From the NCBI RefSeq assembly GCF_009931435.1, contig NZ_CP043414.1: a stretch of 64,000 nucleotides of DNA. One strand, written 5' to 3'. Under the pieces are notes generated by a model, which saw only the letters and a program-made list of their open reading frames with translations, made no database searches and had not been told where the DNA came from. Shown in pieces: positions 52,663 through 56,265 of this stretch. The stretch is from Escherichia coli. GTDB taxonomy: Bacteria; Pseudomonadota; Gammaproteobacteria; Enterobacterales; Enterobacteriaceae. Position numbers and translations under genes: made by a program. Each line of letters opens with the position of its first letter. Within the stretch, counting starts at the first letter, position 1.

Positions 52663-52733
52663 GTGATAATAGCCATATCGAATCGCTTCCGGCAACTCGT
52701 GAGTAAAAAGATTCGGTATCAGAAGAGGTGAGT

Positions 52734-53804
52734 ATGGCTAACGCCTGGCTCAGATTATGGCATGACATGCCAAATGACCCTAAGTGGCGAACAATTGCCA
52801 GGGTGTCAGGGCAGCCAATTGCAACAGTGATGGCAGTGTATATCCACCTCCTGGTGAGCGCGTCACGAAATGTCACGCGAGGTCACATTGATGTCACGAC
52901 AGAAGATTTGGCAAGTGCGCTCGACGTGACAGAAGAGGTAATTGATTCAATTTTGCAGACGATGCAGGGGCGGGTACTTGATGGTGATTTAATCACTGGA
53001 TGGGAAAAACGCCAGGTGCTTAAAGAGGACAACGGCAATATTTCGCAAACCGCAAAATCTCCTGCAGAGCGCAAGAGGGCGCAGCGAGAGAGGGAAAGAA
53101 AGCGGGAACAAAATGGCGATTGTCACGGCGCATCACGAAATGTCACGCACATGTCACGACGAGTCACGACAGATAAAGATACAGATAAAGATACAGATCA
53201 AGAAGATCAAAACACTATGGTCCATGGCGTAAAAAACGCTACGAACCAGGCAGGGGATGTTCAGACCGTCAATCCTGGTCAGCCAGCAGGCACGACACCG
53301 GAAGCCGATTCAGCGTATGCGCTGAAACCCGATTCGGGCGCTGTGCAGCAGGTGATGACCCAAAGGCCGGAACAATCACACCAACTGCAGCAGCCTGAAG
53401 CCGATTCCGCCATTCAGCGGGAAGCCGATCGGGTAGTCCCGGAAAACACCGGGCTGTCTGTGGGACGAGTGGATTATCCGGATGTGTTCGAACAGGTCTG
53501 GCGGGAGTACCCGTTGCGTGCCGGAGCAAACCCGAAGAAATCCGCTTTCAGTGCCTGGAAGGCCAGATTACGCGAGGGGGTGCCACCAGAGGCCATGCTG
53601 GATGGCGTGAGGCGTTACGCAAGATACTTGGCGGCTACCGGGAAAACGGGAACGGAATTTGTTCAGCGAGCGACGACGTTTTTTGGACCGGACCGGAATT
53701 TTGAGAACCCCTGGTTGCTCCCGGTAAGCGGCACGAACAACCAGCGTTGTGTGAATCATATTTCTGAACCGGATAACGAAATTCCGCCGGGCTTCAGGGG
53801 GTAA
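52734..53804 (+). CDS. replication-module protein (YdaU-like, putative initiator)
   Basis: ORF 52728..53804, ATG at 52734 after AGAGGTGAG; N-terminal WLRLWHDMPNDPKW; contains iteron clusters and an acidic DKDTDKDTD linker. Confidence 0.6.
   Translation: MANAWLRLWHDMPNDPKWRTIARVSGQPIATVMAVYIHLLVSASRNVTRGHIDVTTEDLASALDVTEEVIDSILQTMQGRVLDGDLITGWEKRQVLKEDNGNISQTAKSPAERKRAQRERERKREQNGDCHGASRNVTHMSRRVTTDKDTDKDTDQEDQNTMVHGVKNATNQAGDVQTVNPGQPAGTTPEADSAYALKPDSGAVQQVMTQRPEQSHQLQQPEADSAIQREADRVVPENTGLSVGRVDYPDVFEQVWREYPLRAGANPKKSAFSAWKARLREGVPPEAMLDGVRRYARYLAATGKTGTEFVQRATTFFGPDRNFENPWLLPVSGTNNQRCVNHISEPDNEIPPGFRG
52861..53169 (+). repeat. iteron-like repeats (putative prophage origin) inside the replication gene
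   Basis: GTCACG-type motifs at about 52862, 52872, 52882, 52893 (inverted at 52925) and 53122, 53132, 53142, 53153, 53163; TCACGAAATGTCACGC occurs twice. Confidence 0.55.
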
Positions 53805-53844: not shown

Positions 53845-54270
53845 GTGGCAAAAGTTTTTACACAAGAAGAGCGGGAAAAAATTAAAGGGCAGGTTGTTGA
53901 ACTCGTACGCCAGAGTGGGCGCGAGACGTTACGACAACTGGAAACTAAAACTGGGGCAACAAGATATCTGATGAGCGTTCTGGCCAGAGAGCTGGTTGCC
54001 AGTGGCGATGTATACAACTCTGGTTACGGGTTATTCCCGTCTGAACAGGAGCGTAAGGACTGGCAAAATGCCCGTAAAAAGCTCTCAAGGGCAAAGCTGA
54101 AGAAACCATCTGCGGTTGATCCGGACCTTATCTGGTCATTACCTGACGGAGAAATACGTCGCTACGATAGTTGTCTAAACATAATCTGTCGCGAGTGCCG
54201 GAAGAGCGAAGTTATGCAGCGCATTATGGCATTTTATCAGGGAAATGTTAGGTATTTTAGACGTTACTAG
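53845..54270 (+). CDS. hypothetical basic protein (141 aa), replication-module associated
   Basis: GTG start 7 nt after CAGGAGG; GC similar to prophage backbone; no family recognised. Confidence 0.55.
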   Translation: MAKVFTQEEREKIKGQVVELVRQSGRETLRQLETKTGATRYLMSVLARELVASGDVYNSGYGLFPSEQERKDWQNARKKLSRAKLKKPSAVDPDLIWSLPDGEIRRYDSCLNIICRECRKSEVMQRIMAFYQGNVRYFRRY

Positions 54271-54497
54271 ATTAAAGGGCATTAGTTCAGATATGCATTG
54301 ACATTTTCATGGCACAAGGTAGAGCTAGCGTGGTTGTTCGCTTTGTGCCAAGAGTGGTCATTGATAATATTTTGGTGGGTTACATCTGTCAATGTTTCAG
54401 GTGATATGATATACAAATAGCCAGACTTAGACTGGCATGCTGTTTATTTTTATATTATGGGTGTGCCACATGGATTTAAAACTTATTGAGATATGAC

Positions 54498-55523
54498 ATG
54501 GATACTTTTCATAATATTTTGCTTGAGCACATAGACAGCCTTTTAAAAGAGAGACTTGATTTATCTGGTGACGCTGATATCGAAAAAGAAATTAATAACC
54601 TAATTCCCAAAATAGTCATTGTCGTTAAAAAATCTCTTATTGGCTCGGCCAATGCAATGCTTAGAGAACATCGTTCTCTTTGTGATGAATTTGTTGAGAG
54701 AAATATTTCAAGATGGGCAGAGGCTTTTGATTTGCTCGAAACACTTATAGTGATATGCACGGAGTCCGGTGAAGAGTTCAATCGTTCTTATAGACCACAA
54801 GCTGCCTCTGAAGAGGATGTGGTTTTTGATTTAGTCGTTCGGCATCACGCAAGAGCTTGCCACATCGCCAACGAAATTTTGTGTCTCTTAAAGAATGGAT
54901 TTGCAGATGCTGCCCAAGCGAGATGGCGAGCACTTCATGAGGTAGCAGCCACAGCTATGTTTATAGCAAAGCATGGAAAAGAGTGTGCTGAGCGCTTTTA
55001 CTACCATGAAGTGGTTGATTCATATACTGGAATGTTGGAACACAAAAAGTACGAGCACCGGTTAGAAGCAAAAGGTCCAACTATTGAAGAAATAGCTGAG
55101 TGCAAAGTTCAATTTGATCTATTAATAAAAAAATACGGCAAAAAATATGCAGATAATTATGGGTGGGCATCTTATATTTTCCCTAACCATAATAAAGTGG
55201 GGTTTGGAGCTATTGAGAAAGATGTTCAGTTAGAACACATGCGCCCTTATTATAAGTGGGCGAGTCAGAATGTACACACCGGTTCCAAGGCAATGAGAAA
55301 TAGGCTTGGTCTCTGTGAAACTGGTGATGATATATTATTGGTCGGGCAAAGTGATTCAGGAATGGCTGATCCAGCCCATGCTACTGCTATTAGTTTGATG
55401 CAGATTACTGTGACACTTTTATTCTTAAAACCAACCATTGATCATGCCGTCATTTCAAAAATAATACAGGATTATTCTGATGAGATTGGAAATGTATTTC
55501 TTAAAATTGATAAGGGTAATTAA
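54498..55523 (+). CDS. orphan AT-rich hypothetical protein (341 aa from ATG; 345 aa from TTG at 54486), function unknown
   Basis: Uninterrupted 1-kb ORF; visibly AT-rich versus flanks (about 38-40% GC by eye); no TM segments, no P-loop; no recognised homologue. Confidence 0.7.
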   Translation: MDTFHNILLEHIDSLLKERLDLSGDADIEKEINNLIPKIVIVVKKSLIGSANAMLREHRSLCDEFVERNISRWAEAFDLLETLIVICTESGEEFNRSYRPQAASEEDVVFDLVVRHHARACHIANEILCLLKNGFADAAQARWRALHEVAATAMFIAKHGKECAERFYYHEVVDSYTGMLEHKKYEHRLEAKGPTIEEIAECKVQFDLLIKKYGKKYADNYGWASYIFPNHNKVGFGAIEKDVQLEHMRPYYKWASQNVHTGSKAMRNRLGLCETGDDILLVGQSDSGMADPAHATAISLMQITVTLLFLKPTIDHAVISKIIQDYSDEIGNVFLKIDKGN

Positions 55524-55905
55524 AAATTGGAAAAGTGATAGTATATTCTTGTTTTTTTACTGGTAATTAAATGTTTTTAAAGTTACTAGTTCACACCTAT
55601 CGAACGTCCGGTCTTCGCCCAAAGCGGACTAGAAGGTTAGCTTGCGTCGGATTTGGCGTATTTAAAGAATCGCTGGTGGTTACTGGTTGTTGTGTTCCAT
55701 TTCTACAGAACAAAATCACAGAAACTATACCCAATAGTTGTATCTCATCAATGATGAGAGAGCCTCATATTTATCAGGACTGGTGTACGTCCAATACAGG
55801 AGGTTGTCGTGCTGGTTCTCAAATGTGCGCTGGCTATTGCAGCTGTAATGGCAATTTATTGTCTTGCTGTTGTTCTTATGGATCGCCTTTCTGATTGATT
55901 TTATA

Positions 55906-56109
55906 TTGGCCAGGTGACGGGAGTTAAGTAGAATGGCTGCGGGTGCTTGAGGCTATCTGTCTCAGGCATGAACACCAAAGGCAGATAGAGAAAAGCCCCA
56001 GTTAACATTACGCGTCCTGCAAGACGCTTAACATTAATCTGAGGCTCAATCTATGAACGGCAAATCTAGGTTAGCCTCTTACGTGCCGAAAGGCAAGGAG
56101 AAGCAGGCT
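55906..56109 (+). promoter_or_regulatory. hok promoter and 5' leader
   Basis: TTGGCC-17 bp-TAGAAT; leader GCGGGTGCTTGAGG (55939-55952) complementary to 3' CCTCAATGCACCCGC (56315-56329), consistent with hok fold-back pairing. Confidence 0.5.
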
Positions 56110-56265
56110 ATGAAGCAGCAAAAGGCGATGTTAATCGCCCTGATCGTCATCTGTTTAACCGTCATAGTGACGGCACTGGTAACGAGGAAAGACCTCTGCG
56201 AGGTACGAATCCGAACCGGCCAGACGGAGGTCGCTGTCTTCACAGTCTACGAACCTGAGGAGTAA
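56110..56265 (+). CDS. hokD: Hok/Gef-family type I toxin
   Basis: 51-aa MKQQKAMLIALIVICLTVIVTALVTRKDLCEVRIRTGQTEVAVFTVYEPEE, near-identical to K-12 HokD/RelF as recalled. Confidence 0.9.
   Translation: MKQQKAMLIALIVICLTVIVTALVTRKDLCEVRIRTGQTEVAVFTVYEPEE

Follow-up and report, generated by a model that had tools for sequence, protein, structure and literature searches.

The locus

The window analysed here is a 64,000-nucleotide (nt) stretch of Escherichia coli DNA (contig NZ_CP043414.1) that carries a Qin-type lambdoid prophage, in which the gene lygF is followed by an inverted repeat, an insert carrying a gene of the DUF5677 family, and the hok/sok module. The original prediction for this stretch read the repeat, a GCTAGC palindrome between its arms and an extended -10 element further downstream as signals that together may give the DUF5677 gene, there called an orphan, autonomous and regulated transcription. 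We find instead that the repeat is inherited with the gene upstream of it, and that its 3' edge is one border of a slot whose contents differ from genome to genome. Its genes run in the order dicB-ydfABC, a repressor/cro/YdaT module, an O-like replication gene (52728-53804), lygF/DUF977 (53845-54270), the 35%-GC insert, sok/hok (55941-56265), ydfU and a Q-type antiterminator. The argument turns on the following features; L followed by a number denotes a locus or contig used in comparison, whereas the L-site and R-site are the boundary palindromes.

53845-54270, plus strand: lygF (DUF977, Ren-like; Pfam DUF977, E = 2.6e-28), final gene of the conserved replication module
54271-54309, plus strand: conserved non-coding spacer after lygF (divergence 0.061), with an invariant TTGACA at 54298-54303
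54310-54350, plus strand: the predicted inverted repeat, by RNA folding a hairpin of 18 pairs, five of them standing G.U pairs, interrupted by two bulges
54336-54359, no strand: L-site, the left boundary palindrome, GTTCGCTT-TGTGCCAA-GAGTGGTC, from a junction alignment of 29 cargos
54352-55613, plus strand: DUF5677 cargo cassette, GC about 35% (against about 50%), from the GC profile and genome comparison
54498-55523, plus strand: the DUF5677 gene, 341 amino acids, the predicted orphan (Pfam DUF5677, E = 6e-34)
55606-55629, no strand: R-site, the right boundary palindrome, GTCCGGTC-TTCGCCCA-AAGCGGAC, at the start of the hok-side flank (55603-55615)

A hairpin of the plus strand

The arms of the repeat lie where they had been placed (TGGCACAA at 54310-54317 and TTGTGCCA at 54343-54350), and the repeat exceeds chance, both by a repeat search, which gives 11-nt arms that are 91% complementary, and by folding. 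GCTAGC is likewise present, at the tip of the hairpin (54324-54329), but it is not a conserved palindrome, relatives having GCCAGC, TCTGGC or GCTATC. Folded as RNA of the plus strand, the segment 54304-54356 reaches -22.3 kcal/mol (z = -3.95; one shuffle in 200 does equally well), against -15.9 kcal/mol for the minus strand. The same asymmetry is seen in all 21 hairpin variants, which fold at -15 to -20 kcal/mol on the plus strand and at only -5 to -13 kcal/mol on the minus strand, where the G.U pairs become A.C mismatches. Watson-Crick symmetry at the level of DNA extends over 8 nt per arm; the other 10 pairs depend on G.U and can form in the plus strand alone. A covariance model of the hairpin scores 68 bits on the plus strand and 16.6 on the minus strand.

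The hairpin is kept in every related lygF flank examined. Among 17 distinct full-length variants, standard pairs fill 90.5% of cells, and slid registers give 36-54%. In eight pairs a single side varies and pairing is retained, these one-sided changes being mostly G.U-compatible on the plus strand, and one pair has changed in a compensatory manner, from A:U to G:C. Judged from these comparisons, it is the strand asymmetry and the maintenance of the hairpin that support its structure, and not covariation statistics. Mean pairwise divergence among haplotypes with an intact hairpin is 0.091 in the hairpin and 0.061 in the 39-nt spacer before it, compared with 0.166 at the third codon positions of lygF; both are therefore under constraint. 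The hairpin is single-copy in the window and has no counterpart in K-12 Qin, and Rfam has no match to it or to the L- and R-sites at E values up to 5, nor is there a tRNA. Two promoter assignments were tried here and rejected. TTGACA (54298) would be the -35 for a -10 inside the hairpin, but its distance to the hairpin varies (6, 7 or 14 nt) and the -10 is poor, and a sigma-54 promoter (TGGCAC-N5-TTGC) has, by eye, no -12 element on either strand.

The repeat is inherited with lygF

In a megablast comparison with 5,426 complete E. coli genomes, the whole stretch from flank to flank is present in 71, and hundreds more keep one flank only. Genomes with just the left flank stop matching at 54345-54368, and those with just the right flank start at 55603-55615, so that the mosaic breakpoint between conserved flank and cargo falls at the 3' edge of the hairpin, 54345-54371. 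The insert itself (54366-55610) is found in 72 genomes, invariably in the lygF-hok slot and with an identity of at least 99%, and the flanks are conserved much more widely than the insert. The DNA of the hairpin overlaps the left linker of a cargo slot.

What fills this slot varies. The hairpin and its lygF flank also precede at least 29 other, unrelated cargo types on either strand, among them QueH, DUF4209, a 444-amino-acid reverse-strand gene, a regulator with a GNAT acetyltransferase, and a 340-amino-acid protein. That the last of these, from MY732, might be a DUF5677 homologue that has diverged, its promoter being related as well, was considered and rejected (BLASTP E = 0.09). QueH, an epoxyqueuosine reductase, is the most common cargo, following the hairpin in 91 of about 230 hairpin-bearing loci (e.g. 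L004 1600-2660), and the QueH-type hairpin is the one that carries the compensatory A:U to G:C change.

Relatives of the DUF5677 protein at 78-85% identity, for their part, occur elsewhere. P2-like phages have the gene behind their tail genes R and S (L019, L025); in L018 it is divergent from the baseplate gene V; and in L021-23 it follows lambda-P-like replication genes that have no DUF977 with them. In four such contexts, in P2-like and other lambdoid phages, the hairpin is absent beside them. LygF relatives, sampled at one genome per species, gave only 7 loci, all of Escherichia type. A repeat whose inheritance follows the upstream gene rather than the downstream one cannot serve as the dedicated operator of the DUF5677 gene; co-inheritance with that gene is lacking, and so is dyad symmetry of the whole element as DNA. 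On this point the original prediction is not supported.

Boundary palindromes at the two edges of the slot

The right arm of the hairpin has a second identity, doubling as the outer half and spacer of a palindrome of about 24 bp, GTCCGCTT-N8-AAGCGGAC. Its consensus, the L-site, is GTCCGCTT-TGTGCCAR-RAGCGGAC, and the far edge of the slot is marked by a second palindrome, the R-site, with the consensus GTCCGCTY-YTCGCTCA-AAGCGGAC. In the window the R-site has 2 mismatches to its consensus and is the sole match at 3 or fewer mismatches. The consensus L-site folds at -13.7 kcal/mol and the R-site at -11.4 kcal/mol. No published description of either site was found by name or by sequence string, in literature coverage that was incomplete, so that an earlier description is possible.

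Both junctions were aligned over 63 loci that reach both flanks, with 29 different cargo starts and cargos of 853-5,902 nt; the selection required the hok-side flank and so favours types that bear an R-site. On either side of the slot, hardly any variation is seen in the flank-side half-site and most of the spacer, and the cargo-side half is moderately conserved across unrelated cargos. All similarity is then lost within about 5 nt, an end point that the 29 cargos share whatever their length, and the conservation profile steps at the border of spacer and inner half on both sides. The R-site is present in 28 of the 29 cargo types, the exception being L095. An extension of about 9 nt beyond the palindrome (RTTGCTAA) is conserved though it is unable to pair with the flank.

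The junction can also be read from cargos that change neighbours. Where the same cargo stands behind a different left neighbour, identity begins at N-AAGCGGAC: the Evi cargo is the right part of the L090 cargo, the FCI1 cargo is the second cassette of L096, and the L063 cargo follows, in L048, a 709-nt backbone gene. That backbone gene ends in a different, perfect hairpin, which abuts the same ...TGTGCCA| junction.

The same grammar at other loci

Sites also occur inside long cargos, where 5 were found and 0.6 expected. A right-type and a left-type site standing 42 nt apart form a 66-nt R-linker-L doublet between cassettes, which folds at -32.7 kcal/mol. The doublet is found in 703 of the 5,426 genomes at varied positions, always extragenic and never annotated, with 1-3 doublets seen per genome. 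The spacers of the L- and R-sites are distinct and consistently oriented, and the regular succession L...R-42 nt-L...R recurs in L248, L298 and L275 and, in reverse, in L270, all of them unrelated phage contigs from enterobacteria.

In the Qin prophage of K-12, an L/R pair brackets flxA-ydfV next to the relBE promoter, and this cassette is inverted together with its sites. The K-12 (NC_000913.3) ydfV frame itself (L235 5398-5703) holds an L-type palindrome (L235 5482-5505) about 85 nt after its start and therefore spans a cassette junction; from its sequence, ydfV may not be a real gene. In a CFT073 island (NZ_CP051263.1, about 273.7-279.5 kb; L345 7042-12785), L- and R-sites bracket a 5.7-kb iron-uptake cluster comprising a TonB-dependent receptor and an ABC transporter, and the neighbouring genes form more L...R units; the repeats are thus not limited to prophages or to single-gene cargos. 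A 200-amino-acid 'site-specific integrase' lies inside one CFT073 cassette only.

Exact copies of the palindrome also occur, as a side observation, in clusters with a period of about 45 nt in GC-rich phage contigs from IMG/VR (L318, L317, L253, L305; GC 0.54-0.59), with spacers such as ttgggggta, ttgaccca and atggccca. Translated, these give peptide-like artefacts such as NVRFWPKADI and MSALPPKADI. Strings like NVRFWPKADI are common in spurious open reading frames of alpha-proteobacteria.

The upstream region of the DUF5677 cassette

About 100-135 nt before the ATG of the DUF5677 gene (from about 54360/54394) stay attached to the gene in four contexts, including P2-like phages. This region holds the conserved block TTGATAATATnTTnGTGGnTTAnAT (54361-54385), a strongly conserved block AAATAGCTAGACTTAGACTGGCATGCTGTTTATCTTT, and a conserved GAGA 6 nt before the ATG (54488-54491), which from its sequence is likely to be the ribosome-binding site of the gene. 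In L018 the DUF5677 gene faces away from the baseplate gene V; read-through therefore cannot express it, and an internal promoter must exist somewhere in the upstream block. The candidate elements of this block are listed below.

54364-54392, minus strand: sigma-70 match TTGACA-17-TATTAT, 11/12 and the best in the spacer, pointing out of the cassette to the hairpin, antisense to lygF
54402-54410, plus strand: P1, the predicted extended -10, TGaTATGAT, inside the cassette; its hexamer TATGAT matches 5/6
54420-54436, plus strand: weak stem-loop GCCAG-N7-CTGGC with a T-rich run, overlapping the P2 -35; a terminator-like match on both strands
54422-54456, plus strand: P2 promoter candidate, CAGACT/TAGACT, 17 nt, TATTTT/TATATT, better conserved than P1

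TGATATGAT at 54402-54410 is present and has the form of an extended -10, as had been proposed, but taken alone it is weak. Conservation of its TG is poor, and upstream of it there is no -35 that could be used. At the aligned position in 7 lineages, a hexamer of the form TAnnAT occurs in 5 (TATGAT in the window, elsewhere TACTAT, TAGTAT and TACAAT), TGCTAT and CACCAT being found in the other two, and the TG is correctly placed in 2 of the 7. The region is AT-rich and offers 14 promoter-like sites against 5.4 expected; the promoter scan omits P1 for want of a -35. The best plus-strand site upstream of the ATG, at 9/12, is TAGACT-17-TATATT (54428-54456), which is the 6-nt-shifted twin within P2. 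Within the block AAATAGCTAGACTTAGACTGGCATGCTGTTTATCTTT, TAGACT-17-TATCTT stands in the same alignment columns in L018, L019, L025 and L021, and its TAT is invariant in 7 of 7 lineages. The P2 element of the orthologues reaches 8/12 only, below what the stricter scan lists, and their best plus-strand scan match straddles the start codon and cannot serve the gene. P2, which lies 20-45 nt downstream of P1, is better conserved than P1, and both are candidates for the promoter of the gene.

As a whole, then, the original proposal divides: an own promoter for the gene is plausible, the repeat as its regulator finds no support, and the particular -10 is uncertain. From the conservation of the block and the arrangement in L018, the DUF5677 gene is probably transcribed on its own, independently of the hairpin.

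Other elements of the same block are recorded as they stand. The -10 of the minus-strand site (TTGATAATAT on the plus strand) is conserved in L018 and L020; its -35 is 4/6 in L018 and has, by eye, no match in L020. The stem-loop at 54420-54436 was rejected as a terminator, being weak (-7.5 kcal/mol, z = -1.45); by eye, its stem is only partly kept in orthologues. A 25-nt direct repeat of 76% identity has one copy in the upstream block (TTGATAATATTTTGGTGGGTTACAT, 54361-54385) and one in codons 4-12 of the DUF5677 gene (TTCATAATATTTTGCTTGAGCACAT, 54508-54532), possibly by chance.

Neighbouring genes and features

LygF falls in PHROG 142, a Ren-like exclusion protein, and the RefSeq annotation of identical prophages agrees. 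The DUF5677 protein falls in PHROG 27456, where its function is unannotated, and its orthologues align from residue 1. It has no match in PADLOC, and in the only paper that we found to assay a DUF5677 open reading frame, that frame is not listed among the active defence genes; a role as a known defence gene was accordingly rejected. No intrinsic terminator follows the gene, as judged by the lack of any terminator-like site in 55523-55830. To the right of the slot lie the following features.

55630-55940, plus strand: conserved, unannotated hok-side flank, in 3,611 of the 5,426 E. coli genomes
55672-55679, plus strand: Chi, GCTGGTGG, 43 nt right of the R-site
55941-56115: sok RNA (Rfam, 110 bits)
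56053-56265, plus strand: hok (Pfam Hok open reading frame)

The last two form a hok/sok type I toxin-antitoxin module downstream of the cargo slot; in K-12 Qin the equivalent gene, hokD, comes directly after relBE without the upstream region seen in the window. Chi enrichment was rejected, 14 Chi sites per 64 kb being the usual E. coli density. A 107-amino-acid open reading frame at 55571-55894 spans the R-site and the hok-side flank; it has no match in Pfam, PHROG or PADLOC, is unannotated in RefSeq copies, and is probably spurious. On the left of the slot, the otherwise identical prophage of avian pathogenic E. coli (APEC) O78 (NC_020163.1; L234 5449-6677) has insertion sequence IS2 between the O-like replication gene and DUF977, where the window has none.

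Discussion

We think it fairly probable that the repeat is the 3' hairpin of lygF and the replication module, fused to an L-site, that the L- and R-sites delimit an exchangeable slot between lygF and hok, and that the DUF5677 gene is one cassette among many, with an upstream block of its own. What is directly shown is the anatomy of the locus, its conservation, where the junctions lie, the grammar of the cassettes and the strand asymmetry of the hairpin. If the repeat acts at all, we infer that it does so as RNA rather than as a DNA operator: a hairpin at the end of the plus-strand transcript of the replication operon, which might stabilise the 3' end of that transcript, be a site of its processing or insulate it. 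The L- and R-sites would be short conserved linkers at which cassettes are exchanged, most likely by recombination between the repeats, whether of the phage RecE/RecT type or by host RecA, as has been proposed for the promoter-early stem-loops (PeSL) of T4-type phages. The DUF5677 cassette would then bring with it an upstream block containing both the TGnTATGAT element and the better-conserved TAGACT-17-TATATT.

Several observations weigh against this interpretation. Concerning the hairpin, its covariation is no better than that of shuffle controls, and only one pair has changed on both sides, a thinness due to the variant sequences being 94% alike. The stem is followed by AGAGUGGUCAUUG and not by a U-tract, and the terminator scan omits the site, so that in spite of a GC-rich hairpin this is not an intrinsic terminator. 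The hairpin is, moreover, dispensable in some phages: in L198 and L220-224 there is direct coupling of lygF to the gene that follows, and in L153 a junction falls within the hairpin. Concerning the boundaries, the sites in the window are degenerate (4 mismatches in L, 2 in R, -5.6 kcal/mol each), and at 4 or fewer mismatches shuffled windows yield 2.3 matches; for this reason the argument rests on position, spacer class and comparison and not on the count of matches. The most abundant cargo, that of QueH type, has no R-site, its right junction lying about 250 nt further right with the removal of about 250 nt of hok-side flank. The empty slot, with its flanks joined, is absent from the 5,426 genomes, in which neither insertion nor excision was observed; no recombinase is consistently nearby in the neighbourhoods examined; and terminal inverted repeats specific to each cassette were rejected, the ends of a cassette being no more alike within their own pair than across pairs (p = 0.22). 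Finally, P1 and P2 both fall short of a strong consensus match.

A reading at the level of RNA alone, in the manner of repetitive extragenic palindromic (REP) elements, is a rival. The hairpin and the L- and R-sites would be structural RNAs that selection maintains at the end of each transcription unit, as stabilisers, processing sites or transcriptional insulators. Cassettes would be exchanged through homologous recombination of the ordinary kind within the long lygF and hok flanks, and the junctions would look sharp only because functional sequence ends there. The folding energies of the consensus sites and of the doublet, the plus-strand bias of the large hairpin, the clusters with a 45-nt period in GC-rich contigs, the extragenic and unannotated position of all sites, and long flanks common to thousands of genomes are what one would expect of it. 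Yet, by eye, changes in the inner half disrupt its pairing with the invariant outer half no less often than they preserve it, and the most frequent of them, GCGGAC to GCAGAC on the left and GTCCGC to GTCTGC on the right, tracks the frame of the cargo and not one RNA strand. Nor does pairing explain the conserved RTTGCTAA extension, and breakpoints recur at the spacer even where the site is the only shared sequence. We regard this reading as a possible but unlikely one.

A more far-reaching proposal, decidedly unlikely in our estimation, is that the L- and R-sites and the 66-nt doublet are the sites of an undescribed integron-like or dif-module-like cassette-exchange system of enterobacterial prophages and islands, with the repeat as its left site in this phage and a phage or host enzyme swapping accessory or defence genes with precision from site to site. 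A little less likely again is that the L- and R-sites are recombinase core sites in the strict sense, with inverted arms of 8-9 bp about a centre of 6-8 bp, as in lox, FRT, dif and the 'simple sites' of attC, crossing-over in the spacer swapping the contents. The 8-8-8 (or 9-6-9) architecture has the right form, at each junction an invariant flank-side half meets a cargo-side half that goes with the cargo, the spacers are distinct and oriented, arrays are separated by a two-site doublet, and the flxA-ydfV cassette of K-12 was inverted along with its sites. Set against this are the want of a consistently adjacent recombinase in the neighbourhoods examined and of an empty site or circular junction in the 5,426 genomes, the degeneracy of the sites in many loci including the window, a QueH-type cargo that ignores the R-site, and the absence of a known resemblance between the sites and dif, cer, attC cores or gix.

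The original proposal, in which the repeat is an operator and TGATATGAT a promoter that together provide the regulated, autonomous transcription of the DUF5677 gene, is very unlikely as a whole. Its motifs exist, the extended -10 has a good form (TG, n, and a TATGAT of 5/6), a -10-like hexamer is found at the aligned position in 5 of 7 lineages, and the L018 cassette needs a promoter of its own. But the repeat and the -10 are 52 nt apart, with the mosaic junction between them, and the repeat, which is the more upstream, belongs to a different module; it occurs with at least 29 other cargos, reverse-strand genes included, and is absent from DUF5677 relatives elsewhere; and as DNA it is palindromic over only 8 nt per arm, the remainder depending on G.U pairs of one strand, the TG and -35 being unconserved besides. 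Scarcely credible, lastly, is a coding reading in which a small protein starts from the ATG at 54309 (MAQGRASVVVRFVP...) and has the hairpin and L-site as its conserved 5' coding end: an ATG (GTG in the Tritos/Evi type) does open a frame through the hairpin and a motif (N/V)VRFx(S/P)KADI appears at sites in unrelated contigs, but by eye the frame has only 31 codons in the window, no ribosome-binding site, and a TAG at codon 3 in the L122 and L211 types, while frames through the sites elsewhere are short and nonsensical, with copies of the motif a few codons apart, so that a coding origin of the palindrome was rejected, the pattern being that expected of a translated DNA repeat.

The favoured reading of the L- and R-sites as linkers bears on an old open question, namely how accessory and defence genes are exchanged at fixed hot spots in lambdoid phages. 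Susskind and Botstein reportedly proposed that modules are exchanged at special 'linker' sequences, of which good examples are few. A defined pair of palindromes marking both ends of a slot with dozens of alternative cargos makes the linker idea directly testable, and the pair is a signature by which annotators can find cargo cassettes. The repeat should not be treated as regulating the DUF5677 gene. Taken by itself as a promoter or operator, the finding would be ordinary; as the visible edge of a conserved and apparently undescribed cassette-boundary system, it is of real interest.

Comparison with known systems

Elements with some of these properties are known from phages, plasmids and chromosomes. 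The morons of lambdoid phages described by Hendrix and colleagues are promoter-gene-terminator units of deviant GC. The DUF5677 cassette resembles them as a 35%-GC accessory gene between conserved phage genes, with a conserved upstream region of its own, but it has no intrinsic terminator after the gene, and it is the L and R palindromes that bound the unit. The pdif modules of Acinetobacter plasmids are accessory modules flanked by XerC/D sites and, like the cassettes described here, lack a recombinase of their own, have short palindromic borders and occur in many combinations; the L- and R-sites, however, are unlike XerC/XerD arms (11-6-11, GGTGCGCATAA...TTATGTTAAAT).

A closer likeness in layout is offered by integron attC arrays, including the clusters of attC sites lacking integron-integrases (CALINs), in which single-gene cassettes are separated by imperfect palindromes of about 60-70 nt made of two 'simple sites', and each simple site has inverted boxes of 7-8 bp on the two sides of a spacer of 7-8 bp. 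The cassettes described here are likewise separated by palindromic two-site doublets. By eye, however, the core boxes RYYYAAC/GTTRRRY are absent from them, although GTTRRRY fits occasional cargos (e.g. GTTAAGC in Evi). The cassettes differ further in lying on either strand and in appearing to carry promoters of their own, and no integron integrase was found next to the arrays in annotated or Pfam-scanned neighbourhoods.

REP elements and the bacterial interspersed mosaic elements (BIME) built from them are palindromes of 20-40 bp that stabilise upstream mRNA and are targets of recombination and of insertion sequences. In enterobacteria they are extragenic imperfect palindromes, often set in regular doublets or clusters of two sub-types (PMC2817692), and in this the L- and R-sites are like them. 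The differences lie in sequence, which here is unrelated to the E. coli REP consensus, in copy number, which is low at 1-3 doublets per genome, and in distribution, the present elements being confined to prophages and islands, where they bracket whole cassettes in a fixed L...R grammar.

The PeSL elements of T4-type phages provide the remaining comparison. They are termed 'mobile regulatory cassettes', short conserved stem-loop motifs at the borders of variable genes in a hyperplastic region that are proposed to mediate insertion, deletion and swapping (PMC2839356, PMC4122927). At the lygF-hok slot, too, a conserved stem-loop motif is repeated at the borders of variable genes. A PeSL combines an early promoter with a terminator-like stem-loop and belongs to virulent myoviruses. 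Here, in contrast, two distinct palindromes of unrelated sequence lie in temperate lambdoid prophages and genomic islands; the L- and R-sites carry no promoter hexamers, and the promoter candidates lie inside the cassette and are specific to its cargo.

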